Shown here one piece after another: positions 1,874 to 64,000 of a stretch of 64,000 bases of DNA. The first letter of the stretch is position 1. Every line of letters starts with the position of its first letter. Made by a program: the position numbers and the translations under genes. The notes below the pieces were generated by a model, which worked only from the letters and a program-made list of their open reading frames with translations, had not been told where the DNA came from and made no database searches. Source of the DNA: a virus; the IMG/VR virus record IMGVR_UViG_3300045988_099276, positions 32,001 to 96,000 of that record; one strand, 5' to 3'.

Positions 1874-1950
1874 TGGTGGGCTATACAGAACTTGAATCTG
1901 TAACCTAAAGATTAGAAGTCTTTTGCTCTGTCCATTTGAGCTAATAGCCC
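1874..1950 (-). tRNA. tRNA-Arg (anticodon UCU), CCA encoded
   Basis: Minus strand reads GGGCTAT-TA-GCTC-AAATGGAC-AGAGC-A-AAAGA-CTTCTAA-TCTTT-AGGTT-ACAGA-TTCAAGT-TCTGT-ATAGCCC-A-CCA. This folds as a canonical cloverleaf with a 7-bp acceptor stem and a TTCAAGT T-loop. Confidence 0.9.
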
Positions 1951-30831: not shown

Positions 30832-32582
30832 TGAAAATAGATTATAAATTATATAAGCCAACATTGGATAATTTGACACCTCAACAACAAATTTTGTATA
30901 ATAGAGATATTCCAGTAGAAGAACAAAGTAATTGGCTTAATGCCTATTGGAATGACGTAAATGATTTTCATTTGTTAAAGAACATTAAAGACGCGGCTGT
31001 AATGATTATCAATCACTGTATGTGGACAAGCTCAAAGATTACTATTCTTCAGGACTCAGACCCGGATGGCCTTGGCTCTACTTCTATTATGGCTAACTAT
31101 ATTCATCGTATTTGTAGCAAGGAGCCGACTATTCTAATCCACGAAGGGAAAGCTCACGGACTTACAGACATTGATTTAGACAATATTATAGACACTACAA
31201 ATCTTCTTATTATCCCAGATGCGGCAAGTAATGATTATGAGCAGCTTAAATATTTACATGACAATGGCGTAGATATTGTAATCGCCGATCACCATCATGC
31301 TGAGAAATATTCTGAGGATGCTATTGTAGTAAATAACCAATTAGACGATTATCCAAATAAGAACTTCTGCGGTGCAGGTATTACATGGCAACTTTGCCGC
31401 CAGATGGATGAACTTCTTCATTTTGATTACGCAAATGATTTAATTGATTTATGTGCGCTGTCTTTATGCGCGGATATGATGGATTATCGTGAAAAAGAAG
31501 TGAGAGCGCTTGTCAACATAGGTTACGCGAACGTCAAGAATAAATTCTTTAAAGCGTTCGTAGACAAGCAAGAGTTTTCTTTAAATAAGATGAACGGTCT
31601 TAACTATCTTAGCTCTAGCTTTTACGTGGTTCCTTATCTGAATAGCTGCTGTCGAACTGGTGAAATGGTAGAGAAACGTCTTCTTATTAATGCTCTATTG
31701 GATTACAAATGTGATACAATGATTCCATCATCCAAGAGAGGTGAAAAGGGTAAAGAAGTTCCTATCTGGAAAGAAGCCATTACTGTTATTGAACGAGTAA
31801 AACGCAGACAGACTAAGCTACAAGATGAAGCTATGGAATTCTTTGAATATCAAATTCAATCCAAAAAGCTAACAGATAATGCTATCATTACTTGCGTATG
31901 CGGCAAAGATGATGCTGAACCAGGTATTCTCGGATTGGTGGCGAATCGTATCCAAGCTAAATATCAGCATCCCACACTAGTCTTGCAGGAAGTTGAAGAG
32001 GAAGACGTGGTGCATCTAAAAGGGTCTGCTCGTAATTACTCTTATTGTCCTATTGAAGATATGCGTAGTCTTTGTGAAGATACTGGTGTTGTCGATTATG
32101 CTTCTGGGCACGGGTCTGCATTTGGTCTGTCCTTGCCTTTAGAGAACTTTTATGAGTTCTTAGACAAGACCAATGAGCAATACAAAGGTGTCGATTTTAA
32201 ACCTGTCTATCTCGTTGATTACGTTTGGAATTACGATAGAGTCAATCCAAAATATGTTCTTGATATTGCAGAACTTAATATTTATGGTCAGGGTATTCCA
32301 GAGTCTAAAGTTGTGGTAGAAGATATTGCATTAGACAATGTTAATGTACAGCTTCTAGGTGAAGCAAAAGGGCATCCTACTATTAAGATTTCTTTACCGT
32401 CTGGCGTTGATATTATGAAATTCAAATCTTCTAGAGAAGAATTTGAAGAATGGACAAGTGGTGAAAAGAAGCTAACCATTGTAGGAACGTGTTCCAAAAA
32501 TTCTTGGATGGGAAACATTACGCCGCAAATTCTAATTGATGATTTTGAATTAGAAGATTATGAAGAGGAATGGGTATTTTAA
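30822..32582 (+). CDS. recJ: RecJ-like DHH-family ssDNA exonuclease
   Basis: DHH motifs DSDPDGLGS, IPDAASND, ADHHH and GAGITWQL. Exact start uncertain (30822 TTG or 30831 ATG). Confidence 0.75.
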   Translation: MELMKIDYKLYKPTLDNLTPQQQILYNRDIPVEEQSNWLNAYWNDVNDFHLLKNIKDAAVMIINHCMWTSSKITILQDSDPDGLGSTSIMANYIHRICSKEPTILIHEGKAHGLTDIDLDNIIDTTNLLIIPDAASNDYEQLKYLHDNGVDIVIADHHHAEKYSEDAIVVNNQLDDYPNKNFCGAGITWQLCRQMDELLHFDYANDLIDLCALSLCADMMDYREKEVRALVNIGYANVKNKFFKAFVDKQEFSLNKMNGLNYLSSSFYVVPYLNSCCRTGEMVEKRLLINALLDYKCDTMIPSSKRGEKGKEVPIWKEAITVIERVKRRQTKLQDEAMEFFEYQIQSKKLTDNAIITCVCGKDDAEPGILGLVANRIQAKYQHPTLVLQEVEEEDVVHLKGSARNYSYCPIEDMRSLCEDTGVVDYASGHGSAFGLSLPLENFYEFLDKTNEQYKGVDFKPVYLVDYVWNYDRVNPKYVLDIAELNIYGQGIPESKVVVEDIALDNVNVQLLGEAKGHPTIKISLPSGVDIMKFKSSREEFEEWTSGEKKLTIVGTCSKNSWMGNITPQILIDDFELEDYEEEWVF

Positions 32583-51831: not shown

Positions 51832-52135
51832 ACTGCTCCTTCCATTTGTTGAATTCATCTTTTGTTATATAGTTATCCGCAGTTTGCGGCTCAACTTTTT
51901 GGAAGGAGTATTCTGAAATGGTAGATATACCATTCATATCAGTTTCTTTCAAATAAAAAATATCCTTATTTGAGTCCATAAGCAACGCTTTCGTTCCGCG
52001 AGGAACGGCACAGTTTTCCGCTTCTTGACGATTAGACACAAATCTAACGCCTTGAATTTGATTTGCGGGTGTGTAGGCGCTATTCTGCATAGGCATATAT
52101 GGCGCATATGGATTGAAATAAGGATATTCGTTCAT
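51752..52135 (-). CDS. hypothetical protein
   Basis: 127-aa ORF with AAGGAGAAC SD. Its 3' end overlaps the next gene by 80 nt. Confidence 0.5.
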   Translation of the reverse strand: MNEYPYFNPYAPYMPMQNSAYTPANQIQGVRFVSNRQEAENCAVPRGTKALLMDSNKDIFYLKETDMNGISTISEYSFQKVEPQTADNYITKDEFNKWKEQYESIISNIAANTNAAKQPNDRVVGLH

Positions 52136-52321
52136 GGTGTTCTCCTTAGTGATATGTAGTAATACATATATATAAAAGAAGATATGGTAAGAGTTAATCT
52201 ATTTTATTGCATGGAATCTGATTTAACTTCATTACCATATCTTCGTAGTGTCTTTAAGATTTTTCTCTCTATTGTACCTAAAAATTAGAGGGTAAAAATT
52301 ATAATACTTTGCCCAATAATT

Positions 52322-53053
52322 TTAAATTTTTATCCACAACTTACATCTTGAATCTGTTGGCTGAGTAGATGAAACTTGAACTGAATATTCAGTGTTTGCA
52401 CTTCCAGCAGTAGTGGCATATTTAACTGATTGAGAACCAATATCAGCTGATGTAATACATTGGCCGTAATATGAATCGTCTGAGTTATATAGAGAAACAT
52501 TCGGAGTACCATTTAAACCTTTGACGCAAAAGGCACCACTCTTATTATGGTCACCAATAGCAGCATCATCGCCAACGACATACCAAGTATTGTTTGCGAA
52601 ATACGGTTCTAGCTTAGAAGGAAAATCACTGATTTGAGACTTTGTATGTGTATGACTAGAAGGCGTATATGTATTTGGCTTTCCAGATATATTATTCCAA
52701 GCGACAGCATTCGCAGTGGCGGCTGTAGTCGCTGTTGTGGCACTTCCTGCTGAATCAGCATATCCCGCAGACATTTTATACCAAGCACTAGAATTTAGCG
52801 CTCTTTTGTATAAATAAGATGATGCTCCGTCTGGAATAGCAATTTGAAATGGAGTGCCAATATCTGCATCGGTGAACACACTTGCCCATGTGCCAACGGG
52901 AGAAGATGCGTTGCCACCAGTTGACGGCACTCCCCTGACAACATAATAACCAGTTTTGGTATGATTATCTAGATTCGTATCAGTTGTTACTGTTTCTGTC
53001 AACAGCGGTATTTTAGAAAATTTACTACCATCAGAAAGATAAAGTTCAGCCAT
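52322..53053 (-). CDS. tail fibre / receptor-binding protein (fibre C)
   Basis: N-terminal MAELYLSDGSKFSKIP; ISGKPNTYTPSSHTHTKSQISDFP module; conserved C-terminus SSTQPTDSRCKLWIKI. No SD; ATG overlapped by the leader stop. Confidence 0.72.
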   Translation of the reverse strand: MAELYLSDGSKFSKIPLLTETVTTDTNLDNHTKTGYYVVRGVPSTGGNASSPVGTWASVFTDADIGTPFQIAIPDGASSYLYKRALNSSAWYKMSAGYADSAGSATTATTAATANAVAWNNISGKPNTYTPSSHTHTKSQISDFPSKLEPYFANNTWYVVGDDAAIGDHNKSGAFCVKGLNGTPNVSLYNSDDSYYGQCITSADIGSQSVKYATTAGSANTEYSVQVSSTQPTDSRCKLWIKI

Positions 53054-53117
53054 TTAAATCAATTAAACTAGTTAATGTGGGCTTAAAGCCCCCCCCCCAA
53101 GAAGTGTAAGTTTGCAT
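53046..53117 (-). CDS. poly-G leader ORF C (23 aa, ON frame)
   Basis: GAAAGGA SD then ATG; MQTYTSWGGGFKPTLTSLIDLNG. The TGA overlaps the fibre ATG (AATGGCTGA). Confidence 0.5.
   Translation of the reverse strand: MQTYTSWGGGFKPTLTSLIDLNG
53089..53098 (-). repeat. homopolymeric tract, G10 on the coding strand
   Basis: C10 run on the + strand inside leader ORF C. Confidence 0.95.
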
Positions 53118-53134
53118 AAAAATTCCTTTCAATC

Positions 53135-54181
53135 TTAAATTTTAATCCATATCTTACATGTATTGCTAGTAGGCTTTGTGCTAGATATGGTTACAATGTC
53201 GCTCGCTGCCTTGGCATTGAGCTTTGTGTTCATTTCACTTTCAGTATAGTAGCGGTCATCGTGAGTGTGGCTAGAGTTGGCTTTGCCGTTTAATTTAGTA
53301 TTGATTTCGCTTTCAGTGTAATATCTATCATCGTGAGTGTGACTTGACGGAGCATACGTAGAAGGTTTGCCATTAACATTCCCCCATGACACACTATTGG
53401 CAGAACCAGCACTGCTGGCATATGCAACTTTACCAACATCATAACCAGTAGCTTGTGCAGTATATGCTCTTGTGTCCATTGCAGCTCGGGGTTCATCGTT
53501 CATTAACTGCCAAGAAGAGCCATTACCACCACGGGTGCTGTTTGCTAAAATTCGGATATTACACGAATTATATGTGCCAGTAGCATGAAAATATAAATCA
53601 GCATATCCAACAGTTGATTTAGCAGAATGTATTTTTAAAATAAATTGGTCTGGTTCATATCCATATCTACAAAGCCATTGAACGTTTCCATGAGTAGCCA
53701 CAGCGCTTTCAGATACATTATCATTGCGGAAACGGACTGCTAGAATGCCAAATCCACCACTTTCGTAACCAGAATCTACACACAATACAACGCTACCATC
53801 GAAAGAATTAGTTTTTGATTCAAGCTTTAAACAACGCCAATATGGTTTAGCAGCACTGCTTTGAGTAACATATCGGACAGTACCATTTAAATAATTAGCG
53901 ATATTAGCTGTACCAGAAATATTACATGATACAACATTTCCTACTGGATTATATTTAAAATTATCGCTATGAACTCTTTGATTATCTGCACTATTATTTG
54001 AAAACCAAACATGTCTTGCAGCATTGTCCGAAGCGGTACCATAACTTTTTACTTCTTTCGCGGCACCTCCTGCGGAATCTGCACCCGCATAATTATGGCT
54101 ATGACTAGCAGCTGCTGCTCCCACCATATCTGGCGTCCACTCTTTAAAAGACCCGCCACTGGGATAATACGCTTTAGCCAA
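53135..54181 (-). CDS. tail fibre / receptor-binding protein (fibre B)
   Basis: TTG start without SD; MAKAYYPSGGSFKEW; SSHTHDDRYYTESE(I/M)NTKL occurs twice; C-terminus SSTKPTSNTCKIWIKI. Confidence 0.72.
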   Translation of the reverse strand: MAKAYYPSGGSFKEWTPDMVGAAAASHSHNYAGADSAGGAAKEVKSYGTASDNAARHVWFSNNSADNQRVHSDNFKYNPVGNVVSCNISGTANIANYLNGTVRYVTQSSAAKPYWRCLKLESKTNSFDGSVVLCVDSGYESGGFGILAVRFRNDNVSESAVATHGNVQWLCRYGYEPDQFILKIHSAKSTVGYADLYFHATGTYNSCNIRILANSTRGGNGSSWQLMNDEPRAAMDTRAYTAQATGYDVGKVAYASSAGSANSVSWGNVNGKPSTYAPSSHTHDDRYYTESEINTKLNGKANSSHTHDDRYYTESEMNTKLNAKAASDIVTISSTKPTSNTCKIWIKI

Positions 54182-54193
54182 TTAAATCATTGG

Positions 54194-54253
54194 CTACTGA
54201 TGCCCCCCCCAGCAGACCTCACTAAAGGTGCGCTGTGTTAAAATATTCTTCAT
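54194..54253 (-). CDS. poly-G leader ORF B (19 aa as sequenced, OFF frame)
   Basis: MKNILTQRTFSEVCWGGHQ* with G8. With G9 it reads ...WGGASVANDLIG* and its TAA overlaps the fibre TTG (TTGGCTAA). Confidence 0.45.
   Translation of the reverse strand: MKNILTQRTFSEVCWGGHQ
54203..54210 (-). repeat. homopolymeric tract, G8 on the coding strand
   Basis: C8 run on the + strand inside leader ORF B. Confidence 0.95.
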
Positions 54254-54260
54254 ATTATCA

Positions 54261-55721
54261 CTATACCTTAATCCATAATTTACAAGTACTCGCGTTGGGC
54301 TGCGAAGAAGAAACGATAACTTCTTCTGGCCGCCAAGTGTTAGTGTCATTATCAGTAAGCGCAATAGTCGCATTGCCAGACTGGTTCAAAGTAAACGTAC
54401 CCTTTGTAGCGCCGTTCTGCGTAATTGTAATAGTACCATTGCCGACAGAAGGAATTGACGGTCTGTTAGAGATTTCAGACCAAGAATAGGAAGGTTTGCT
54501 TGAAGCCTTAGCCCAAGCATACACATCACTTGCTGGCATACTGGTAGGGAAATCTGTAATCTGGGACTTTGAATGAGTGTGTGAAGAAGCGGCGGCACCG
54601 ATACTAGAAGCTGTGATATTAATATTCTTGACTGCACTACCATCATATGCACCTTGAGAAGTACCATTTAAAGAAATGGTAAGCGCATTAGGATTCTTTA
54701 AAGAACTTGGAACAGTAGGAATAGTAGGCTTATTGGAAAGGTCATTATATGAGCCGCTTGTCGCAACGGTAGCAAAAGATGGCTTGCCAGATACCTGTGA
54801 CCAAGTAGGAGTATGATTGGAATCAAAATAATGCGCCCAAGCGCTCCAAGCGTTAACATTAAACTGGCGAATCCAAGTTTTCATAGCATTGGTATTGCCC
54901 TCAGTTAAAACTTGAACTAGATAACTGCCAGCTGTTCTTTTGACTTCAAGACCGAAAGCGTCTACGCCAGTGGGCTTATTCTTGACACTATTTGAACCAC
55001 CCGCAAAATAAAGGCCAACTGTTTTAGTATCATCAAGATTTTGTGTAGTAAGTTCTGTTACCTTTAGTGCGTTTGCGGTTGCAGCAGTAGTCGCACTGCC
55101 AGCACTAGCCGCATACTTTACACTCTTGGCAGAGTCAGCGGTATTATCAACATTACCTAGACCGACTTCTGCCTTAGAATATGAAGGTTTTGTGGCTGCT
55201 TTCGCCCATGCAGAAACATCTGATGCTGGCATTGAAGTCGGAAAATCTGTAATATCGGCTTTAACATGTTTGTGACCAGTATCAGACTTACCGTCAAGAG
55301 CAGATTTAACAACCTTACTCTGAACTGGATTGGTAGAATTAGTAACGAACGATGTATCTACAACTGTCTTGTTCGCGCCAGTAGCAACACCGTCAAGTTT
55401 AGCCTTATCTGCGGCAGACATAAGACCTGCGGCACTGGTAGTAGCATTGCCGTATACAGTATTTGAATCGGTAACATTAAATGTACTACCATCGCTACCC
55501 TTGAGGGTAATTGTATTGCCATTTTTGGTTAGATTATAAGTTGTATTTGTATTGATATTATCTTTAATCTGAATCAGAGAGGATGAAGAAATACCCATCC
55601 ACAAAGTGCCGGTATCGGTGGCAACATACAATGCACCGTCCAATACTTTATTTTCGGCAGTGAGTGCTTTGATATTAGGTTCTTTATCTCTGATAAATTT
55701 TACTCTTGCTATCTTGCTCAC
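54261..55721 (-). CDS. tail fibre protein (486 aa)
   Basis: GAAAGGA SD then GTG. Repeated KADITDFPTSMPASDVSAWAKA / KSQITDFPTSMPASDVYAWAKA modules with HTH/HKH motifs. C-terminus SSSQPNASTCKLWIKV. Confidence 0.78.
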   Translation of the reverse strand: MSKIARVKFIRDKEPNIKALTAENKVLDGALYVATDTGTLWMGISSSSLIQIKDNINTNTTYNLTKNGNTITLKGSDGSTFNVTDSNTVYGNATTSAAGLMSAADKAKLDGVATGANKTVVDTSFVTNSTNPVQSKVVKSALDGKSDTGHKHVKADITDFPTSMPASDVSAWAKAATKPSYSKAEVGLGNVDNTADSAKSVKYAASAGSATTAATANALKVTELTTQNLDDTKTVGLYFAGGSNSVKNKPTGVDAFGLEVKRTAGSYLVQVLTEGNTNAMKTWIRQFNVNAWSAWAHYFDSNHTPTWSQVSGKPSFATVATSGSYNDLSNKPTIPTVPSSLKNPNALTISLNGTSQGAYDGSAVKNINITASSIGAAASSHTHSKSQITDFPTSMPASDVYAWAKASSKPSYSWSEISNRPSIPSVGNGTITITQNGATKGTFTLNQSGNATIALTDNDTNTWRPEEVIVSSSQPNASTCKLWIKV

Positions 55722-55736
55722 ATCCTTTCTGATAGA

Positions 55737-56498
55737 CTATTTAATAGAAGACCAAGTTAAATCATCTGGCGTAGCAAAATCAGAAGCATCATGATATGCG
55801 GCAGATTTTAAACCATATACTGCCACAGATTTATCTTTAACTTTGATTGTACCATTTGTAGTGCCAGTAGTAATAGATGTAACTGTCAAAACATCAGATG
55901 GCAAAATGCCGCTTGCAACGGTATCGACATATGCTTTAGTGGCAATGTCATTATCGTCATTGATGGCTTGACCAGCCGCGTATTTAATTTTACCAGATAA
56001 AGTACCACCAGTAAGAGGAAGATATTTCGCTTTCTCTTGGTCGGTATATGCCTTTGCATCTTTAAGGGCTTTATCTGCCCTTACTTGTGCGTCTGTTGAA
56101 GACGCACCAGATGCAGTCTTAATTGCTGAATTCATCTCACTCTTGGTTGGATAGTTCGATAGGTCGGTCTTAGAACCACCTAGCTTTTCAAACTTACCAT
56201 TAACCCAAAAATATTCAGTATATTCATTGCTGGATTCAGTCAAATCTGGCAACATATAAATTGTATTTTCTTCGCCAGTAGAAGGAAGAGTTGACCCTTT
56301 TGCAAGCACAACACGTTTAAGATGCGGCGCACCTGCCACTGCATTGGCAATAGCTGTGTTCATAGCATCCTTTTTAACATATTCTGCTGGAATTTTGTTA
56401 CTTGGAATGTTAATATCCCAATTAATATCAGAAGCATCTACGAGTTTGAAAGTGCCGTTATTCTTTTGTTTGATTTTATCAATAAGTTGAACAGGCAT
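55737..56498 (-). CDS. tail fibre protein (253 aa)
   Basis: Shares modules with 57341-58987 (HLKR.VLA..., TEY..VNG.FE..G, GTTNGTIKVKDKSVAVYGLKSAAY). Confidence 0.68.
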   Translation of the reverse strand: MPVQLIDKIKQKNNGTFKLVDASDINWDINIPSNKIPAEYVKKDAMNTAIANAVAGAPHLKRVVLAKGSTLPSTGEENTIYMLPDLTESSNEYTEYFWVNGKFEKLGGSKTDLSNYPTKSEMNSAIKTASGASSTDAQVRADKALKDAKAYTDQEKAKYLPLTGGTLSGKIKYAAGQAINDDNDIATKAYVDTVASGILPSDVLTVTSITTGTTNGTIKVKDKSVAVYGLKSAAYHDASDFATPDDLTWSSIK

Positions 56499-57316
56499 TA
56501 TTTCACCTCCACCGTAGTTGCACCTAATCCTGCATTAGTTGACCTATAGATATTATAAGAAGCGGTATAGCCACTTGCATTTGTGAAATCAAAAGTCTTT
56601 ACTTTGTTGAAGCCACCCTCGAAACCTCCAACATAAAATGCGGGAGTTCCAAAAGAAGCAGGAATAGCAAAATAAATATGCTGCTCAGCATTAGCTGTGA
56701 CGCTCCATGAACCAGTGCGGCCAGACACTAGATTTTTAGTAAGCCCTTTGACAAATGTCGCATCCATCCTAGAAGTATCTGTTATATTGCTCACGCCATA
56801 GTATTTACCATTTAAAAAGTAAATTGTAGTCTGCTTAGTAGATGTGGCTTTGCGAGCATCAGTAGCGGTCAAAGTAAATGCGGTCGTTGCGGTAAGAGGT
56901 GCCGCAAATGTAATTGCCGCATTCCCAGATTGTGTCTTATTGATTTCAAATGATTGGCTACCTGTTGTAATTGTCAGTTTAGAAGGTTGTTTGTTCAAAT
57001 TCCAAGAGAAGTTGGAAGATGGAAGACGAGAACCTATTTCAAGTGTGCCGCTATTGTTAGAAAAACTATTAACGGACATCGCTTTATAAATTGAAAGTGT
57101 GCCGTCAGAGGTAATATCAAAATCTCCGCTTGGCTTGATAATACCTGCAGCAGAACCCGTGGCAATTTTAATATCGCCACAGCTATATTTGATATTATTT
57201 TTCATGATACTCGTGGTATCTGAAAGAAAATAGATGCCGTTGGGGTCTATTTTGGTAGACCCCAACGCATCATACTCTGATTGCACGCCTGTGTAAAATC
57301 TAATATCAGCAGACAT
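56498..57316 (-). CDS. tail fibre / baseplate-associated protein
   Basis: N-terminus MSADIRFYTGVQSEYDALGSTKIDPNGIYFLSD resembles the other fibre N-termini; Ser/Thr-rich beta-type sequence. Confidence 0.6.
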   Translation of the reverse strand: MSADIRFYTGVQSEYDALGSTKIDPNGIYFLSDTTSIMKNNIKYSCGDIKIATGSAAGIIKPSGDFDITSDGTLSIYKAMSVNSFSNNSGTLEIGSRLPSSNFSWNLNKQPSKLTITTGSQSFEINKTQSGNAAITFAAPLTATTAFTLTATDARKATSTKQTTIYFLNGKYYGVSNITDTSRMDATFVKGLTKNLVSGRTGSWSVTANAEQHIYFAIPASFGTPAFYVGGFEGGFNKVKTFDFTNASGYTASYNIYRSTNAGLGATTVEVK

Positions 57317-57340
57317 ACAATCTCCTTAATCTAATTTAAA

Positions 57341-58987
57341 TTAGAGCGTCTGCCATTCAATTAGGCTGTTAGCATATTCCTTCGCAGATTTAAGAGCGTT
57401 GTTAGCCTTGGTAGTAGCATCTGCGGCAGCAGCGTCAATAGCTTCGCTCTTCTTTGTGTCAGCATAAGTCTTAGCTTCAGAAAGAGCGCCAGCAGCGGAA
57501 CCAGAAGCATCAAAAGCACCACTGTTCTGATAGGCAGCAGAACCAAGACCCTTAACGGCAACGTCTGTACCCTTGACAGAGATTGTACCGTTAGCGGTAC
57601 CAGAAATAACGTCAGCAGCCTGTAGAGCAGTATCGGCCTTTGTACCCTGAGCAGAGGTAGCGAAAGCACCAGTGGCGGCATACGCGGCAGTACCTAGGCC
57701 ATGAACCTTGACGGGAGCGCCCTTAACGGAGATAGCACCGTTAACAGTACCCTCAACAACATCAGCAGCCTGTAGAGCAGAATCAGCTTTATCACCTTGG
57801 TCGGCAGTAGCATAATTCTTGGCTAGACCATCAGAATAAGCCTTAGCATCTTCAAGAGCCTTATCAGCCTTTTTACCAGCTTCGGTGATAGCAGCAGCTT
57901 GAGCAGCGTTAGCCTTTGTGGTGGCATCGGTTGCGGCAGCAGCAATGGCAGCATTCTTAGCAGCATCGGCCTTAGTCTGAGCATCGGCAGCAGCTACGCC
58001 CTTAGCGGTAGTAATAGCACTAGTTACTTGGTCTTTAGTGAAGTAATTGCTAAGGTCTGTATCAGAAGTACCAATGCGTTCAAAGGCACCATTGATAAGC
58101 ATATACTCAGTGTATACAGACTTATTAGAACCTGCGGCATCAGCGCTGCCAGAATCAGGAACCATATAAATTGTATCTTCATTGGCAGCAGAAACCTCGG
58201 GGAGCTGAGCAACGATTTCACGCTTTAGGTGATGTGCGTTAGCTACAGCAGAAGTGATATGGCTATCAACTTCGGTCTTTGTATAAGCATCTCCGATACC
58301 ATAGCCAGCAAGAGTAGTAGCCTTGTTAGCTTTTTTATCAATTTCAGCCTGTAGAGCAGTCTTTGCGGCACCAACCTGACGGGTTGTCTCAGCAGCAGCA
58401 GCTTCGATAGCTTCTGTTTTCTTGGTAGCAGAATCAGCCTTGGCATCCTCTAGAGCCTTATTGGCTTTAGTAGTAGCGTCTGCGGCAGCGGCTCCAATAG
58501 CAGCCTGCTTAGCATCAGCAGCAGCTTTCTTGATAGAGCCTTCGCCCTCACCGTTAATAACGCCAATAGCAGCTTCATTAGCATTAGCTTTGCCCTCAAC
58601 AGCGGTAACGCGGTCAGCTAGAGCACCTGTATTAAGATTAGCAATAGTATCCTTAACATAATCGGCAACAGACTTAGCAGTAGCAAGCTCAGCGGCAGTG
58701 CTAGCATCAGAAATAGTAGTAGCCTTGGGAAGAACTACGGTCTGAAAAGCAGAGCCATCATAAAAACGAACTTCACCAGTAGTCTTATGGACATAGAGGA
58801 CATTCTGCTTAGCCGTATCGGTTGCAGGGAAAGCATCAACAGTCTTGTAAACGCCACCAGAGAAGCACTGGTCACCCTTGAAGATTTGGTTGACACCGTT
58901 ACCGATAAAGTACAGAGTATTGGGGTCTTTTACAGCAAGAGAGTTATACTTTGCAAGGTCGGTAGCAATAAATTTTACTTGTGCCAT
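57341..58987 (-). CDS. long Ala-rich coiled-coil tail fibre (548 aa)
   Basis: MAQVKFIATDLAKYNSLAVKDPNTLYFI; three AAADATTKAN.AL(E/K).AK repeats; duplicated GT.NG.ISVKG..V.V.GLG.AAY modules. Confidence 0.75.
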   Translation of the reverse strand: MAQVKFIATDLAKYNSLAVKDPNTLYFIGNGVNQIFKGDQCFSGGVYKTVDAFPATDTAKQNVLYVHKTTGEVRFYDGSAFQTVVLPKATTISDASTAAELATAKSVADYVKDTIANLNTGALADRVTAVEGKANANEAAIGVINGEGEGSIKKAAADAKQAAIGAAAADATTKANKALEDAKADSATKKTEAIEAAAAETTRQVGAAKTALQAEIDKKANKATTLAGYGIGDAYTKTEVDSHITSAVANAHHLKREIVAQLPEVSAANEDTIYMVPDSGSADAAGSNKSVYTEYMLINGAFERIGTSDTDLSNYFTKDQVTSAITTAKGVAAADAQTKADAAKNAAIAAAATDATTKANAAQAAAITEAGKKADKALEDAKAYSDGLAKNYATADQGDKADSALQAADVVEGTVNGAISVKGAPVKVHGLGTAAYAATGAFATSAQGTKADTALQAADVISGTANGTISVKGTDVAVKGLGSAAYQNSGAFDASGSAAGALSEAKTYADTKKSEAIDAAAADATTKANNALKSAKEYANSLIEWQTL

Positions 58988-59053
58988 GTAACATCCTTTC
59001 TTTTACATCTTGCAATACATATATATTATAAGCGCATTTGCGCATATAACCAA

Positions 59054-59485
59054 TTAAGATTCCAACTGATTCCATTCAGTTAGATTTGAAACCATAATAT
59101 ATTCTTTTGTGGCCGCAGACCATTTATAAGTAGCTTTGTCGGCAACATATAGTGTCTTTGGATTCCCTTCTTTTGGAAAATCTAGAACGCTTGTGGCAAA
59201 CACGATAGGCTCTAGATTGTCTGGAGTCATTTGCTGCCAAGAGCCATTTGAAAAATTCCACATGACGTTCGTAGAAGTGACGTAATAATATCCTTCAATG
59301 ACAGCAGTATATTTAATTCTGTCTTCTTCTGTGGCAAATGTCTGAATTGTCTTGAATGGATAGCGACCGCCATTGAAATCTAGACAAACTGTGCCGCCGT
59401 CAGTTACAAAAATAATATTGCCGTCACGCACTGGGAGCTTTGAGAGGTTCTTCGCGCTAACAGTGTAGAGGTTAGTATAAGTCAT
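59054..59485 (-). CDS. structural protein (fibre-associated)
   Basis: 143 aa; N-terminus ...LPVRDGNIIFVTDGGTVCLDFNG resembles the fibre N-terminal motif. Confidence 0.5.
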   Translation of the reverse strand: MTYTNLYTVSAKNLSKLPVRDGNIIFVTDGGTVCLDFNGGRYPFKTIQTFATEEDRIKYTAVIEGYYYVTSTNVMWNFSNGSWQQMTPDNLEPIVFATSVLDFPKEGNPKTLYVADKATYKWSAATKEYIMVSNLTEWNQLES

Positions 59486-60307
59486 TTAATCACCCTCCCC
59501 TACAAGTTTATCGAAGTCTATCATTTCAAGGTGCGGAGTTTGAATATTTCTATCAATATATTCTTTAATTGTAGAAATATCATCTGTAAACGTAATGCCG
59601 CATTTATCAGCATCTAGTTTTGAATCAATGCGGGCATCGACAATCGCCAAAGATTTCTTAGCTTCTTCCAGAGCTGCATCGGCTTTATTGCCAATTTGCT
59701 CAACACGTTCCATAGCTTCGGTAGCCTTTTTTGCCGCATCGTCTGCCTTACTAGCAGCCGCATTAGCTGTATCTACTGCTTCTTTTGCATCGACCTTTAC
59801 CTTGCTAAACTCAAGCAGCATGTCTTCAAATTCAATTTTCTGAGCAACCATCTGCTTTTTCATTTGGTCACCGATACAATTTAGACGAATAACTGCATTC
59901 TGGAATAGCGTGAAATCATCAGAAACTACAAAAGAAGAGCCGTCATTTGGGTCTGATAAAACGTGTACGATGAAGTTTGTAGACTGAGCAATAGAAACGC
60001 TGTCTACTAATTCAATGCAGCATAGAACATCGCCTTCGAGCAACATAGCTTGCGGCCATTTGATTTCCCAGATAATTGGGTCATCATTCGTCTGCGTGAA
60101 GACATTATATCCCTTAATCTTCTTTTGGCGATGGAACCAACTCAGATATACTTTAGTCTCAGGAGTAATTTGAGCAGCAGCTTCTTGGTCAAAAATAATC
60201 CTAAAAGTACGACCGTTCGCATCCGCGCCACCAGCTACAATAGGGTCTTTAATATCTTGGTCAAGAGACTTTAAATTGACTGTAACTGTTTTCAATTCCT
60301 GACTCAT
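59486..60307 (-). CDS. baseplate upper protein (BppU)-like
   Basis: N-terminal TVNLKSLDQDIKDPIVAGGADANGRTFRIIF resembles the BppU N-domain; C-terminal Ala-rich coiled coil. Pattern-level inference. Confidence 0.45.
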   Translation of the reverse strand: MSQELKTVTVNLKSLDQDIKDPIVAGGADANGRTFRIIFDQEAAAQITPETKVYLSWFHRQKKIKGYNVFTQTNDDPIIWEIKWPQAMLLEGDVLCCIELVDSVSIAQSTNFIVHVLSDPNDGSSFVVSDDFTLFQNAVIRLNCIGDQMKKQMVAQKIEFEDMLLEFSKVKVDAKEAVDTANAAASKADDAAKKATEAMERVEQIGNKADAALEEAKKSLAIVDARIDSKLDADKCGITFTDDISTIKEYIDRNIQTPHLEMIDFDKLVGEGD

Positions 60308-60841
60308 TTATTCACTCCTTTCATTGTTCTTTTGGCTTACAATAAATTGTGGATTGGAAAGATTGATTCTCGGTAGTTCGCGTATCTCTTCCATTAAGCC
60401 ATCAATGAATGAGTTGCCGCCTGCCGCTTTATAATATAAATATCTACGCTCTAGAGATTCTAGGTTAAGGTCATCAATAGCCTTGATTTCATAGCAAAAA
60501 TAGTGATGCTTGTCAATGATATAACTGCGAGAATTTTCCTGCAATCTTTCAAGAGTAAGTTTTTCATGCTCTTGGAGTGTTTTAATATCATTCGATTGGT
60601 TGCTAATTTCTTGGCTAAGATTTTTAACGTCTGCTTGCAACGAAGCAATACTTTCCACAATCTCAGAGTGCTTTATATCTTTAATTGTCTGATAGTTGAA
60701 ATACTTTTTTAATTTATCATAACAATATTCCAATAGCTCACTTAAAAATTTAAAAGCGACAGCTAAAGTCACAACTAGCATAACGATAGCCCCAAAAGAG
60801 TATTGCGATACCAGTTGCGATAAAGCATCCATTCTCGGCAA
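60308..60841 (-). CDS. membrane-anchored coiled-coil protein
   Basis: TM helix FGAIVMLVVTLAVAFKF followed by a coiled coil. Confidence 0.5.
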   Translation of the reverse strand: MPRMDALSQLVSQYSFGAIVMLVVTLAVAFKFLSELLEYCYDKLKKYFNYQTIKDIKHSEIVESIASLQADVKNLSQEISNQSNDIKTLQEHEKLTLERLQENSRSYIIDKHHYFCYEIKAIDDLNLESLERRYLYYKAAGGNSFIDGLMEEIRELPRINLSNPQFIVSQKNNERSE

Positions 60842-60910
60842 TATCCCTTCTTCTCTACATAATCTATATAATATGAAAATAATTTGTATTTGATTTTAGG
60901 AATTTGCCCA

Positions 60911-60943
60911 TAAAAAAACGAGGGAAACATAAAGTTTCCCTCG
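60911..60943 (-). terminator. Rho-independent terminator
   Basis: CGAGGGAAAC/GTTTCCCTCG stem followed by T7 on the minus strand. Confidence 0.75.
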
Positions 60944-61008
60944 AATTAATAAACTATGTCTAGGAGATTAACAAAATTTGATATTATGCTGCACCTCCTA
61001 TCATATAA

Positions 61009-61395
61009 CTAGGCTGTGCGGAAATAGATATTAAAAGCCCTGTACTTTGGGCGGTTGTCAAAAGGTTGATTACCGCCTGTATTTTCCATCGAATCGTTTG
61101 GTGGATTCCAGCTTCTAGAACCGTTAAGAGCAGCTTTAAAATAGTTTTGTGAATTGCCAGTAAGCCATTCACCGAATCCAGCAAGCACGTGGTTATGTGA
61201 TGGCATTTGGTTAATTGTAAGTTTAATAGAGTTTGTGCCACCTGTTGTATTTGGCGTGCCGCAACAAATGAACGTGTCATTATCGAGCTTTGTCCATGTT
61301 CCGCCAATGGAATCTGCTGGCGAGACTGAATTGTTTGAAATAAAGACTGACCCAACTGGGTAGACAATATCCATGAGGTTAACGTAGTTAGACAT
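61009..61395 (-). CDS. phage tail-collar-domain protein, paralog 4
   Basis: MSNYVNLMDIVYPVGSVFIS...SPADSIGGTWTKL...MPSHNH...GGNQPFDNRPKY...YFRTA. Confidence 0.72.
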   Translation of the reverse strand: MSNYVNLMDIVYPVGSVFISNNSVSPADSIGGTWTKLDNDTFICCGTPNTTGGTNSIKLTINQMPSHNHVLAGFGEWLTGNSQNYFKAALNGSRSWNPPNDSMENTGGNQPFDNRPKYRAFNIYFRTA

Positions 61396-61413
61396 ACGCC
61401 ACCTCGCTCAGAT

Positions 61414-61806
61414 TTAAGCTGTACGATACCAGATAAAGCAAGTTGTATAGGGCGGCAGATTGTTGTGTGCTTGCCCCCCCCCAGTATTCTTTGCAGCATT
61501 ATTCCAATCTGGATTACCATCATTCCACGCAGGAGAATTAGTTGCAAAAAGTGTACGATATGTTGTTGCATTTCCACCGTTAACAACAGCAACAACAATG
61601 CCATGTCCATGAGACGGCATTTCATCAATTGTTAACGTATGCTTTGCTTCTCCGCCTGTTTGATTTGCGGTATTAGCTCCATAGAGGAAAGTCTTAATTT
61701 TCGTCCATGTACCACCAATAGAATCAGCAGGTGATGTTGCACTCATGCTCTGATAGATTGAGCCTACTGGATATACGATATCCAATAGATTTACAAAATT
61801 ACTCAT
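61414..61806 (-). CDS. phage tail-collar-domain protein, paralog 3 (contains an in-frame G9 tract)
   Basis: MSNFVNLLDIVYPVGSIYQS...GGTWTKI...MPSHGH...NTGGGQAHNNLPPY...WYRTA. The GGG GGG GGG codons encode the conserved GGGQ motif. Confidence 0.72.
   Translation of the reverse strand: MSNFVNLLDIVYPVGSIYQSMSATSPADSIGGTWTKIKTFLYGANTANQTGGEAKHTLTIDEMPSHGHGIVVAVVNGGNATTYRTLFATNSPAWNDGNPDWNNAAKNTGGGQAHNNLPPYTTCFIWYRTA
61474..61482 (-). repeat. homopolymeric tract, G9 on the coding strand, intragenic
   Basis: C9 run on the + strand, 23 codons before the stop of 61414-61806. Confidence 0.95.
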
Positions 61807-61850
61807 TTATATCCTTTCTAATTTAATAGAAAGAATATTATAAAATCTTC

Positions 61851-62303
61851 TTAGGCTGTTCTCTTATATACATTTAAAGAATAATGATAAGGAATATGCT
61901 TCTGCTGCTCGACTAATTGCCCATTTGAGTCTATTCGCCAAATGTCTTTAGTCCACAAATTCCAACCAGTATCACCACCATCTTTACCACCAACTGACAA
62001 TAATTGCCATAGATTACCAGCGGCAGCATTAGTATTCCAAAAACCAATACCCGAATATTGTTCCCTGTCATGATGCCAACCCACAACATTGTGCTGATGG
62101 TCTGGTATGGCTAGCTGAGAAATTATATTGCTACCAGAAAAACGTCCAGCTACGTTATAGGTATCACCACTTGCCGCAAGCAAACAATTTTCAATTTGTG
62201 TCCACGTACCACCAATAGAATCAGCAGGAGAAGTAGCATTTGTACTAATATAGATACTTCCTACTGGATAAATAATATCAAGAAGATTTACAAAATTAGA
62301 CAT
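61851..62303 (-). CDS. phage tail-collar-domain protein, paralog 2 (divergent C-terminal half)
   Basis: MSNFVNLLDIIYPVGSIYIS...SPADSIGGTWTQI...IPDHQH...YKRTA. Confidence 0.68.
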   Translation of the reverse strand: MSNFVNLLDIIYPVGSIYISTNATSPADSIGGTWTQIENCLLAASGDTYNVAGRFSGSNIISQLAIPDHQHNVVGWHHDREQYSGIGFWNTNAAAGNLWQLLSVGGKDGGDTGWNLWTKDIWRIDSNGQLVEQQKHIPYHYSLNVYKRTA

Positions 62304-62342
62304 GATAAATCACCATGCCTAGAACAGCCATTGAAGAAGAAG

Positions 62343-62399
62343 CTACATTACTGTAGCCTCCCCCCCCCAATGACTGTGATTAGTCATTAAGTTTTTCAT
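62343..62399 (-). CDS. poly-G leader ORF D (18 aa as sequenced, OFF frame)
   Basis: GAAAGGA SD then ATG; MKNLMTNHSHWGGEATVM* with G9. With G10 it reads ...HWGGGGYSNVASSSMAVLGMVIYHV* and its TAA overlaps the next ATG (ATGTCTAA). Confidence 0.45.
   Translation of the reverse strand: MKNLMTNHSHWGGEATVM
62360..62368 (-). repeat. homopolymeric tract, G9 on the coding strand
   Basis: C9 run on the + strand inside leader ORF D. Confidence 0.95.
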
Positions 62400-62434
62400 A
62401 ATATCCTTTCGTTTAGATATTATGATTTTAGACT

Positions 62435-62818
62435 TTAAGCAGTTCGCACCCAAACTTTGCAAGCATATGAATAAGGATAATAATCCTGTCCACCACCAGC
62501 ATCACCAGTATTACACCCTTGAGGATAGTTTTGTGCGCCAGCACTGCCTGAATCTTCACTATAGTCTTTACGAACAATATTAGGATTACCGTAATTTGCT
62601 GTAACATATTGAGCGTGTGCGTGAACTGGCATCTGTTTAACGCTAATAGTCTTACTACCAGTATAACCTACAATATCATCATATGCGGCCAAACATGCGC
62701 CATCTTTAATTTGAGTCCATGTACCGCCAATAGATGATGCAGGTGAAATACCGCTAGCAGTGATATATATACTGTTTACAGGATAGATAATATCTAGAAG
62801 GTTTACGAAATTGCTCAT
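62435..62818 (-). CDS. phage tail-collar-domain protein, paralog 1
   Basis: MSNFVNLLDIIYPVNSIYIT...GGTWTQI...MPVHAH...GGGQDYYPYSY...VWVRTA. Strong AAGGAGG SD. Confidence 0.72.
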   Translation of the reverse strand: MSNFVNLLDIIYPVNSIYITASGISPASSIGGTWTQIKDGACLAAYDDIVGYTGSKTISVKQMPVHAHAQYVTANYGNPNIVRKDYSEDSGSAGAQNYPQGCNTGDAGGGQDYYPYSYACKVWVRTA

Positions 62819-62931
62819 TATTCAACCTCCTTATTTGGGAGGTTATCTAAAATCATAATATCAAATTGATTTATAGATTCTAAGCTACCGCAGTAGCCCC
62901 CTAGAGAGGTCAATTCATTAAACTTATTCAC
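62818..62931 (-). CDS. leader-like small ORF E (37 aa) with a short G5 run
   Basis: AAAGGAG SD then GTG; VNKFNELTSLGGYCGSLESINQFDIMILDNLPNKEVE. Its TAA overlaps the next ATG (TAATG). LGGY aligns with WGGGGY of leader D. Confidence 0.45.
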   Translation of the reverse strand: MNKFNELTSLGGYCGSLESINQFDIMILDNLPNKEVE

Positions 62932-62975
62932 ATAAAACTCCTTTTCTTTCTCAGAATTATATTCTATATCTATAT

Positions 62976-63010
62976 GAAAAAAGGGCAAAACCCCTAATAG
63001 GATTTTGCCC
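62976..63010 (-). terminator. Rho-independent terminator
   Basis: GGGCAAAA/TTTTGCCC stem followed by T6 on the minus strand, after fibre A. Confidence 0.6.
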
Positions 63011-63019
63011 AAAACTATA

Positions 63020-63838
63020 TTAGATTTTAATCCACAATTTACAAGTAGAGGATGTAGGCTGAGAAGATGATACAGTGATAACATCATTTGCCGCATAATT
63101 GGAAGAAGAAGTATATGCGGCGCTACCAAGACCTAACCATTTCCTATATTCACCTTGTGATACGTCTTTAATTTTTCGTTCATCGTTCATACCAAGAGCA
63201 TACTTAAAATCGGCAGATGTAAATCCATCACCAGCATAACCGATTTTAATACCTTGATTAGTATTATTATAATCCGCTATCTCAATAGCTTTATCTGCTG
63301 AACCTGCACTTGTAGCTTTACCAGTAAGATTGCCTTTAAAATTATTAGCTTCAATCGTTGAATACGCAGTATTCGATGTATAATTACAAAACTTATATGT
63401 AATACCAGTAGTCCCACCATCTGATGCATCAGAGTCGGCATTTCTATAATTAAAATAACAAGTAGGTTGCTTACCACCAGAAAAGTTAATTTCATTTTGA
63501 TGAGTATAAATTACATTTATACACTTATTAGCGGTACCAGCTGAATTAGCATAATTTACTGACTTACTAGAATCTGCTGTATTATTGACGTTATTGATAC
63601 CTAGATATTGCTTTGCCGCATCTAGATTTACATCTTTAATATGATTGCCAGTTGAACTATATCCTGCAAGACAACCTAAATTCTTTTCAGCATCTTCTTG
63701 ATTTAATCTTAAAGATTCTGCTGCAAATCCTATTTTAATTGTTCTACCGGTAGGTGCATTATAATCTCGCACACCATCGGCTTTAGAAGGGACAAATTCA
63801 GAAAAATTCGTCCCATCGCTCACCATAAAATCAGCCAC
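63020..63838 (-). CDS. tail fibre / receptor-binding protein (fibre A)
   Basis: GTG start without SD; MADFMVSDGTNFSEFVP; C-terminus SSSQPTSSTCKLWIKI. Confidence 0.72.
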   Translation of the reverse strand: MADFMVSDGTNFSEFVPSKADGVRDYNAPTGRTIKIGFAAESLRLNQEDAEKNLGCLAGYSSTGNHIKDVNLDAAKQYLGINNVNNTADSSKSVNYANSAGTANKCINVIYTHQNEINFSGGKQPTCYFNYRNADSDASDGGTTGITYKFCNYTSNTAYSTIEANNFKGNLTGKATSAGSADKAIEIADYNNTNQGIKIGYAGDGFTSADFKYALGMNDERKIKDVSQGEYRKWLGLGSAAYTSSSNYAANDVITVSSSQPTSSTCKLWIKI

Positions 63839-63852
63839 ATCTATCAGCTAAG

Positions 63853-63897
63853 TTATCTAGCGGGGCAGATGCCCCCCCCCAGAAACGTATTATTCAT
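63853..63897 (-). CDS. poly-G leader ORF A (14 aa as sequenced, OFF frame)
   Basis: AAGGA SD then ATG; MNNTFLGGGICPAR* with G9. With G8 it reads MNNTFLGGASAPLDNLADRCG* and its TGA overlaps the fibre GTG (GTGGCTGA). Confidence 0.45.
   Translation of the reverse strand: MNNTFLGGGICPAR
63872..63880 (-). repeat. homopolymeric tract, G9 on the coding strand
   Basis: C9 run on the + strand inside leader ORF A. Confidence 0.95.
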
Positions 63898-63907
63898 ATC
63901 TACATCC

Positions 63908-64000
63908 TTAAATTTGTACCCACAGTTTAACATGTTCTTCTGTTGGCTTACTCACGCCAACATAAACAGTACCAACATCATCTGCAAGTTTACCATTGGT
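63908..64000 (-). CDS. tail fibre protein (3' end only; gene starts beyond the window)
   Basis: ...TNGKLADDVGTVYVGVSKPTEEHVKLWVQI*; the C-terminus is homologous to the ..QPT...CKLWIKI ends of the other fibres. Confidence 0.6.
   Translation of the reverse strand, partial: TNGKLADDVGTVYVGVSKPTEEHVKLWVQI

Follow-up and report, generated by a model that had tools for sequence, protein, structure and literature searches.

Campylobacter Fletchervirus phages carry hypermutable poly-G tracts of 7–11 nt in receptor-binding genes (Sorensen et al. 2021, as described in bioRxiv 10.1101/2025.10.21.683753 and PMC10877375), and similar tracts are reported from BPP-1 and PB1-like phages, with homopolymer contingency loci in T2 and T4 (bioRxiv 10.1101/2025.10.21.683753; PMC10877375). 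Here we describe a receptor-binding module within a 64,000-nucleotide stretch of viral DNA (positions 32,001 to 96,000 of IMG/VR record IMGVR_UViG_3300045988_099276; the whole of this stretch is referred to as the window), in which five long G runs lie in or directly upstream of putative fibre and tip genes, four of them within short leader open reading frames (ORFs). The best-supported reading of this arrangement, to which we assign a probability of about 0.6, is that slippage-prone G runs gate individual receptor-binding genes by way of a translationally coupled leader ORF.

As in Fletchervirus, so far as those accounts describe it, one large myovirus-type phage has G runs of about 7–11 nt at several of its receptor-binding genes, changes in run length would toggle single genes to give a mixed virion population, and one window tract (tip gene 3, 61474–61482), together with 58 counterparts in relatives, lies inside the gene itself. 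The differences are that four of the five window tracts are in a separate upstream leader ORF, from which their effect would run via translational coupling, that the host is presumably a Gram-positive gut bacterium, that the DNA has 37% G+C and no DNA-level similarity to phage records, and that one genome may carry as many as 9 switches, a leader and an intragenic tract often lying in series on the same gene. T2, T4 and other coliphages (Gomez, Barrick & Waters, bioRxiv 10.1101/2025.10.21.683753) share short homopolymers, reversible polymerase slippage and bet-hedging, but their loci are mostly A/T runs of at least 6 nt, are spread over every class of gene, with tail fibres under-represented, whereas the window phage has long G runs that are confined to the receptor-binding module and placed in what would be a dedicated regulatory ORF. 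Bacterial phase variation in Campylobacter, Neisseria and Haemophilus is similar in its 8–11 nt poly-G/C tracts, its frameshift ON/OFF switching, and its many loci with combinatorial phenotypes, and differs in that the classical tract sites are inside the ORF or in a promoter spacer. A literature search of limited coverage, in phages and bacteria, found no case of a tract carried by a coupled upstream ORF that ends over the start of the regulated gene, which is absence of evidence only. The internal tip-gene tracts are new members of the poly-G switching already known in phages; the leader design is the new step, and one that we infer.

Translational coupling is found in RNA phage MS2 (coat–lysis and replicase) and in many bacterial operons. 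The leaders resemble coupling of the MS2 type in having overlapping stop and start codons and a downstream start that would lack a usable Shine-Dalgarno motif (SD), or have it held in a hairpin until upstream ribosomes melt it, and differ in that the upstream cistron is a non-conserved mini-ORF that apparently only carries a mutable frame selector. The Mu G and P1 C invertible segments and the BPP-1 retroelements likewise provide phage-encoded stochastic variation of receptor-binding proteins; unlike these, the module genes are all in one orientation, and the variation would be in expression state and not in protein sequence. No invertase or recombinase and no reverse transcriptase was found among the proteins scanned, which cover parts of the window.

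In the proposed mechanism, the poly-G runs would gain or lose G at a high rate during copying of the phage DNA. Each run is positioned early in a leader ORF of 20–40 codons that has a good SD and starts directly behind the preceding gene. In one length class ribosomes would continue as far as a stop that overlaps the next start (ATGNNTRA, TAATG or ATGA), and in the other two they would stop 5–26 nt past the run. The downstream fibre or tip gene would be poor at recruiting its own ribosomes, either lacking an SD (with TTG or GTG as a frequent start) or having its SD or start codon locked in a hairpin, and would be translated mainly when the leader supplies ribosomes, through termination-reinitiation together with hairpin melting. 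In the intragenic case the GGG of a conserved GGGQ motif, some 20 codons from the end of a Gp10_C tip protein, is specified by the run, and a frameshift would replace the conserved C-terminus. The genes would flip independently, and a lysate would be a mixture of virions with different sets of receptor-binding proteins, although the consequence for host range is the least secure step.

Poly-G tracts and leader ORFs in the receptor-binding module

Five runs of C on the plus strand, corresponding to G on the coding minus strand, are located at 53089–98 (10 nt), 54203–10 (8 nt), 61474–82 (9 nt), 62360–68 (9 nt), and 63872–80 (9 nt). These are all of the G/C homopolymers of at least 7 nt in the 64 kb, and they are clustered within 11 kb of fibre and tip genes. 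Composition (G+C 37.4%, C 17.8%) predicts about 0.05 runs of at least 8 nt, against the five seen (Poisson p ~1e-9, by our own arithmetic). An earlier sequence-only reading of the window had called these its only long homopolymers, which holds for G/C runs and not overall, as A and T runs of up to 9 nt are present (13 A and 8 T runs of at least 7 nt), at roughly the frequency expected from composition.

Much of what that reading had proposed about the four tracts outside tip gene 3 was borne out. Each tract lies inside a short ORF whose ATG (53117, 54253, 62399 and 63897 for leaders A, B, C and D, respectively) is 17–43 nt ahead of the tract and 7–35 nt past the preceding stop, with an SD of AAAGGA or AAGGA for leaders A, C and D and a weak AAGGT for B. 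A single tract-length class of the three reaches a stop that overlaps the next start (ATGGCTGA, TTGGCTAA, ATGTCTAA and GTGGCTGA), and the three fibre genes starting at 53053, 54181 and 63838 have no SD-like motif in the 25 nt upstream of their ATG, TTG and GTG starts. As had also been stated, three of the four leaders are off the read-through frame in this genome: A (G10) is in that frame and B (G8), C (G9) and D (G9) are out, while the tip gene 3 tract is in frame. The proposed 16 combinations, or 32 with the intragenic tract, are arithmetically correct and valid only for independent, binary switches.

Three of the leaders precede fibre genes (these and all features given below are on the minus strand). 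Leader A (53046–53117; AAAGGA SD) ends with TGA at 53048–53046 inside ATGGCTGA, and its G10 tract (53089–53098) leaves it ON, with fibre gene A (52322–53053; 243 aa, ATG start, no SD) behind it. Leader B (54174–54253) begins 7 nt after the stop of a 486-aa fibre gene (54261–55721; C-terminus CKLWIKV). Its read-through stop, TAA at 54176–54174 inside TTGGCTAA, requires G9, and with G8 at 54203–54210 it is OFF here; fibre gene B (53135–54181; 348 aa, no SD) has a TTG start that is buried in a predicted hairpin (UAGCCAAU/AUUGGCUA). The public gene call for fibre B (L014) begins at an internal ATG at 54127 (330 aa), not at the TTG backed by N-terminal homology, and an exact-protein look-up found the 348-aa TTG-start product absent from the records. 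Leader D (63831–63897; AAGGA SD) has a G9 tract (63872–63880) and an early stop at 63855–63853, and is OFF in this genome; G8 or G11 is required to reach the read-through stop, TGA at 63833–63831 inside GTGGCTGA. Fibre gene D (63020–63838; 272 aa, C-terminus CKLWIKI) has a GTG start and no SD. The leader D homologue in the relative L023 (5425–5444) has G20, in the read-through frame; it is the longest tract of all, and either a real expansion or an assembly artefact.

The N-termini of fibres A, B and D are homologous from the second codon (A-E/D/K-x-Y/M-x-S/P-D/S-G), and a stop codon in the fibre's own frame lies immediately upstream of every fibre start. The fibre starts can thus be trusted, and displacement of N-termini does not account for the leaders. 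Four fibre genes also share a 3' end (SSxQPxxSxCK[LI]WIK[IV], followed by the stop) that forms a direct-repeat family at 52329–52375, 53142–53188, 54268–54314, and 63027–63073. From these shared 3' ends and the homologous N-termini, the variable fibre middles look like exchangeable cassettes between conserved junctions. The fibres match PHROG tail-fibre families, and a PDB sequence search with fibre B gave weak matches only.

The remaining leaders precede tip genes. Leader C (62296–62399; AAAGGA SD) has a G9 tract (62360–62368) and is OFF here, with G7 or G10 required to reach the read-through stop, TAA at 62298–62296 inside ATGTCTAA. A predicted hairpin, UAGGCAUGGUGA-UUU-AUCAUGUCUA (62297–62321), hides both the SD (GGUGA) and the AUG of tip gene 2 (61851–62303; 150 aa, Gp10_C), and the leader C region as a whole has a folding z of -7.25. 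The same hairpin also scored as terminator-like (11 pairs, then ATTTTG), and some transcriptional attenuation is possible there. A fifth leader, E (62818–62931), had been overlooked by the sequence-only reading, along with its shrunken tract. It starts with GTG at 62931 after an AAGGAG SD, and its TAA stop (62820–62818) overlaps the ATG of tip gene 1 (TAATG). The tract has decayed to G5 (62897–62901) in the read-through frame, relatives having G8–G11 at the same position, and leader E looks like a locked-ON allele. The SD of leader E is also followed by ATGTGA (62928–62933), a start-stop mini-ORF overlapping the presumed GTG start.

Tip gene 1 (62435–62818; 127 aa, Pfam Gp10_C) has no internal tract, and its SD is predicted to pair with an anti-SD inside leader E in the hairpin AACCUCCC/GGAGGUU (62823–62844). 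Its GGG motif is written GGTGGTGGA, and the homologue in L023 (7908–7916) has G9, so that the same glycines are encoded by non-mutable and mutable codons, respectively. With leader E at G5 in frame and no internal tract, tip gene 1 seems to be set permanently ON in this phage. It is flanked on either side by the arms of a 20-nt inverted repeat (62846–62865 and 62413–62432; 95% complementary, 413 nt apart), one in leader E just 5' of the anti-SD and the other between the tip gene 1 stop and the leader C SD. The repeat is present in the same orientation in L022, L029, L040–L042 and L053, and was never inverted in eight relatives; it could provide long-range RNA pairing joining both leaders, or a recombination site.

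Tip gene 3 (61414–61806; 130 aa, Gp10_C) has its own SD and carries the intragenic G9 tract (61474–61482) within the conserved GGGQ motif, in frame and 22 codons before the stop. Following a +1 shift, the frame (61388–61482) would pass the normal stop and end at ATGTCTAA over the start of tip gene 4, the same geometry as in the leaders, and this tract might also alter coupling to tip gene 4 (61009–61395; 128 aa, Gp10_C), which has its own SD and no tract. All of ten tip proteins tested match Pfam PF21939 (Gp10_C) above the curated threshold (best E-value 1e-21), and a PxHxH motif is invariant in the ten; PDB sequence searches gave nothing useful for tip gene 1 and weak matches only for a tip-protein profile.

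Tract length and reading frame among relatives

Protein-guided scans recovered 29 IMG/VR loci, one metagenome-assembled genome (MAG), and 28 metagenome contigs, nearly all from human-gut short-read assemblies and from genomes of 80–147 kb, and removal of copies of the same contig left 51 loci (0.86 Mb), from which the counts below are taken. These contain 172 coding-strand G runs of at least 7 nt and not one C run, with 1–9 runs per locus, a mode of 9 nt and most between 7 and 12 nt. All but one are within the fibre/tip module, the exception being an in-frame G7 in another gene (L035, 13215). The leader design, defined as a short ORF whose farthest-reaching frame stops no more than 15 nt from the start of an ORF of at least 90 aa, is present at 93 of the 172 runs and across many leader families that cannot be aligned, and a further 58 are tip-gene GGGQ tracts about 20 codons before the stop. 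On their 5' side the leader tracts are bordered mostly by T or C (positions -6 to -1), and in 96% the run is followed by C at +1; in certain families these pyrimidines pair with the SD of the gene downstream.

Tract lengths were compared in sets of near-identical loci from different samples (L031/L032/L057, L029/L053 and L037/L064, with 0–2 substitutions over 11–20 kb), tract homology being assigned by all-against-all BLAST of the loci; matching by fuzzy flanks was dropped, as it missed many sites. Among L031, L032 and L057 there are 1–2 substitutions over 14–20 kb and the sole indels are ±1 G in a tip-gene tract, L029 and L053 have no substitutions over 16.8 kb and two indels, both in leader C, one of them within the tract and the other a single G elsewhere in that leader of L029, and L037 and L064 differ by one substitution and one tract indel. 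For L043 and L044, four of four indels are at tracts. The tracts account for about 0.3% of the compared sequences, and variation in A/T runs is confined to intergenic terminator tails. Comparison across relatives, one of the checks that the sequence-only reading had put forward, shows polymorphism between otherwise near-identical genomes, and we consider it very probable that the tracts are hypermutable.

Flanking changes provide a second line of evidence. The read-through frame is kept at other tract lengths by TT+G8 (L005), T+G8 (L004), and a 13-nt deletion with G10 (L001), a pattern that sequencing error would not yield. In-frame tracts account for 37 of the 93 leaders and 25 of the 58 intragenic tracts, such that about 60% of the switches are out of frame. 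Nonetheless, all 37 of the tip-gene tracts first examined, in frame or out of frame, encode the conserved CxxWxRTA end in one frame, and because this end is intact the shifted tip genes are not decaying pseudogenes; this is the signature of reversible ON/OFF loci. In the leader C homologue of L022 (8448–8457) and of L040, a TGG to TAG change just before the tract places a stop ahead of the G run at any length, and this allele looks locked OFF.

The G runs are real contingency loci: they are in excess in one gene class, their length is polymorphic between near-identical genomes, and length would alter expression, by replacement of the C-terminus in the intragenic case and by access from stop to start in the leaders, where protein output would change. 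The clade ranges from 33% to 50% G+C. One relative (L021, CALBYK010000319.1; 130 kb, module G+C 50%, six tracts) is in a MAG labelled uncultured Prevotella, a label at odds with the window phage's SD usage and its endolysin of Gram-positive type. It probably reflects wrong binning, and we treat it as unreliable, as the binning of phage contigs is.

Proposed coupling of leaders to downstream genes and competing explanations

In all five window leaders the stop overlaps or abuts the downstream start. The overlap is direct in 75 of the 93 leaders among the relatives, with a -5 geometry (start, 2 nt, stop) in 42, TAATG in 25, and ATGA in 8, and it recurs in leader families that are mutually unalignable. 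An SD is present in 85 of the 93, and the downstream gene starts with TTG or GTG in 35. Both non-read-through frames stop no more than 26 nt past the tract in 91% of 91 unique leaders, compared with 22% of 20,400 background positions, and the median distance from tract to stop is 12 nt for these frames (the out-of-frame stops being 5–26 nt past the run) versus 49–54 nt for the read-through frame.

The downstream starts appear poorly equipped to initiate independently. At 22 of 50 unique junctions there is no SD-like motif, and most of the others pair the SD or the start codon in a predicted hairpin, with ACCUCC(C)/(G)GGAGGU, CCCUCU/AGAGGG, and CUCCCUU/AAGGGAG as examples of the SD/anti-SD pairings; at some junctions (leaders B and C) the start codon itself is within the stem. 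The minimum free energy (MFE) of the junctions is -16.5 kcal/mol versus -8.8 kcal/mol for 175 control gene starts in the same loci (p = 3e-16), and the pairing probability of the ribosome-binding site is 0.57 versus 0.46 (p = 8e-7), with the reservation that the MFE is inflated by the G run and that homologous junctions are not independent.

The leader peptides themselves show no codon-position bias in the read-through frame, variable sites being distributed 24/25/27 over codon positions 1/2/3. Peptide-level selection was therefore rejected, and with it the suggestion of the sequence-only reading that resemblance between leader peptides is evidence of selection; the likeness arises from the G run and the fixed stop/start junction. 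A leader–fibre fusion or programmed recoding was also rejected, as each of the three leader frames is closed by a stop at or ahead of the gene start. These data fit a regulatory mini-ORF in which the leader would matter as a path for ribosomes and not for its product.

Several observations weigh against gating by tract length. The in-frame share of leaders is 40%, near the one third expected were length irrelevant, and of the 48 leaders with G9, the most frequent length, 39 are out of frame (among G9 tip-gene tracts, 16 of 26 are in frame), which fits either 'default OFF, rare ON' bet-hedging or constant slippage at the RNA level. The out-of-frame stops are 6–45 nt from the downstream start, from where post-termination ribosomes might reinitiate, so that OFF may mean merely lower. 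In one family the 5' arm of the SD-masking hairpin is at the tract (L023 6802, L033 7415; anti-SD immediately 5'), and any leader translation, whatever its frame, might expose the SD. Leader A showed no significant structure on folding. Furthermore, the length comparisons set one assembly consensus against another, and miscalled G runs are possible in short-read assemblies; the role of the fibre and tip genes in adsorption is putative, these being receptor-binding candidates by their Pfam and PHROG matches.

The in-frame fraction near one third and the mostly out-of-frame modal G9 are what might be expected if RNA polymerase stuttering or ribosome slippage feeds a fixed minority of ribosomes into the read-through frame. 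The leader would then act as a throttle for low, noisy expression of accessory fibres, and length differences in the DNA would be near-neutral. That 172 of 172 tracts are G in the mRNA sense, and never C, also suits an RNA-level function, and G runs are similar to SD sequences, known to stimulate frameshifting. However, RNA polymerase slippage is best documented for A/T runs and not for G runs, the DNA tract length does differ between near-identical genomes, and in the intragenic tip-gene tracts rescue of a minority would waste most of the product. We regard slippage at the RNA level as unlikely to be the explanation, although it and DNA switching are not mutually exclusive.

A somewhat more doubtful explanation is that the leaders act on transcription or recombination, either through translation-dependent attenuator hairpins or because the junctions are homology blocks for exchange of fibre cassettes, with the G runs as by-products. 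The hairpin at 62321–62297 is terminator-like, but the hairpins are poor in G-C pairs, their T tails are weak, and most junctions have no terminator-like feature at all. The repeat family at the fibre 3' ends and the homologous fibre N-termini are consistent with cassette exchange, yet this leaves unexplained both the early stops in the two alternative frames and the stop/start overlap in unalignable families. Similarly, the 20-nt inverted repeat around tip gene 1 is conserved, but an inverted variant of the segment it flanks was never seen. Finally, that the tracts are homopolymer sequencing or assembly errors, and the short ORFs meaningless or remnants of frameshifted gene starts, is very improbable: Illumina quality does fall within and behind long G runs, a G20 tract looks implausible, and the evidence base is consensus assemblies, but homologous tract positions recur in more than 50 assemblies from differing projects and assemblers, A/T runs vary solely in intergenic terminator tails, point substitutions beside tracts compensate the frame, the architecture is conserved over unalignable sequences, and the own-frame stops directly upstream of the fibre starts show that the leaders are not displaced N-termini.

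We therefore favour gating of receptor-binding genes by slippage-prone leader tracts. A broader proposition, for which we consider the odds to be even, is that the leaders constitute a modular and self-contained translational phase-variation cassette, in which an SD and a mini-ORF are combined with a poly-G frame selector, both wrong frames close early, and the read-through stop overlaps a start that has no other usable ribosome-binding site. This cassette would have spread by duplication together with receptor-binding cassettes in a widespread clade of ~145-kb human-gut phages, so that a genome could have up to 2^9 configurations of its virion surface, and would be the first contingency locus, in a virus or possibly anywhere, to act through an upstream ORF and translational coupling instead of disrupting the controlled gene or its promoter.

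Source phage, module layout and implications

The stretches of the window that were tested, the A and B junctions among them, show complete identity to ENA contig ERZ916335 k127_113253 (146,342 bp), which derives from a k-mer assembly of human gut metagenome ERR321583. The ATG-start products match this source contig; five other carrier contigs were collapsed as duplicates, and their tract lengths are outside the comparison. The window encodes a PolC/DnaE-type polymerase (closest to SPbeta-like Bacillus phages, 38% identity), a topoisomerase II, an anaerobic ribonucleotide reductase, a RecJ-like nuclease, and an Amidase_2 endolysin whose nearest relatives are endolysins of Eggerthella, Lactococcus and Enterococcus phages. 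Most window genes are preceded by strong AAAGGA or GGAGG SD motifs, and we take the window to be from a large phage (~146 kb) that infects a Gram-positive bacterium of the gut. Initiation that depends on the SD is plausible, given the strong SDs throughout and an endolysin like those of phages of Gram-positive hosts. The sole tRNA in the window is a tRNA-Arg (anticodon TCT; 1874–1950, minus strand).

Searches gave no homology to Fletchervirus phages or to their receptor-binding proteins. Megablast of the 12-kb module against 50,697 phage records gave zero matches, tblastn with the 486-aa fibre matched only uncultured gut and archaeal viruses, and an IMG/VR DNA pattern scan with the leader A junction found no contigs beyond those already in the set. 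No Rfam family was found in 52000–64000 at E ≤ 0.1, and in a promoter scan promoter-like sites were no commoner than in shuffled sequence.

In minus-strand order, the module begins with a fibre gene leaving the window end (C-terminus KLWVQI), leader D, fibre D, and an intrinsic terminator 3' of fibre D (62983–63010). A second block consists of leader E, tip gene 1, leader C, tip genes 2, 3 and 4, the remnant of a fifth tip gene, and a further terminator (60919–60943), the two terminators flanking the tip-gene operon. Five structural genes follow, and then the 486-aa fibre, leader B, fibre B, leader A, and fibre A. The remnant (60946–60987; ATA ATA TCA AAT TTT GTT AAT ... TAA) encodes IISNFVNLLDIVY followed by the stop, and is preceded by a AGGAGGTG SD, with the terminator at 60943–60919 coming next.

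Gene callers systematically misplace the starts of leader-gated genes or split them. Over half of the tip genes appear frameshifted and fibre B is called from an internal ATG, and because gene callers mis-start or truncate leader-gated and tip genes in this way, annotation pipelines under-report them. If leader gating is correct, a coupled upstream mini-ORF would be a third position for a contingency repeat, besides the coding sequence and the promoter. A leader position would keep the regulated protein intact in both states, and could be moved between genes as a cassette. Such switching would bear on the inference of phage–host networks from metagenomes, on the persistence of virulent phages in the gut, and on the design of phage therapy. 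If the mechanism holds, gut phages of Gram-positive hosts would hedge their host range through many independent, reversible switches, 2–9 in each genome, and host range would characterise the phage population, not any one genome sequence.

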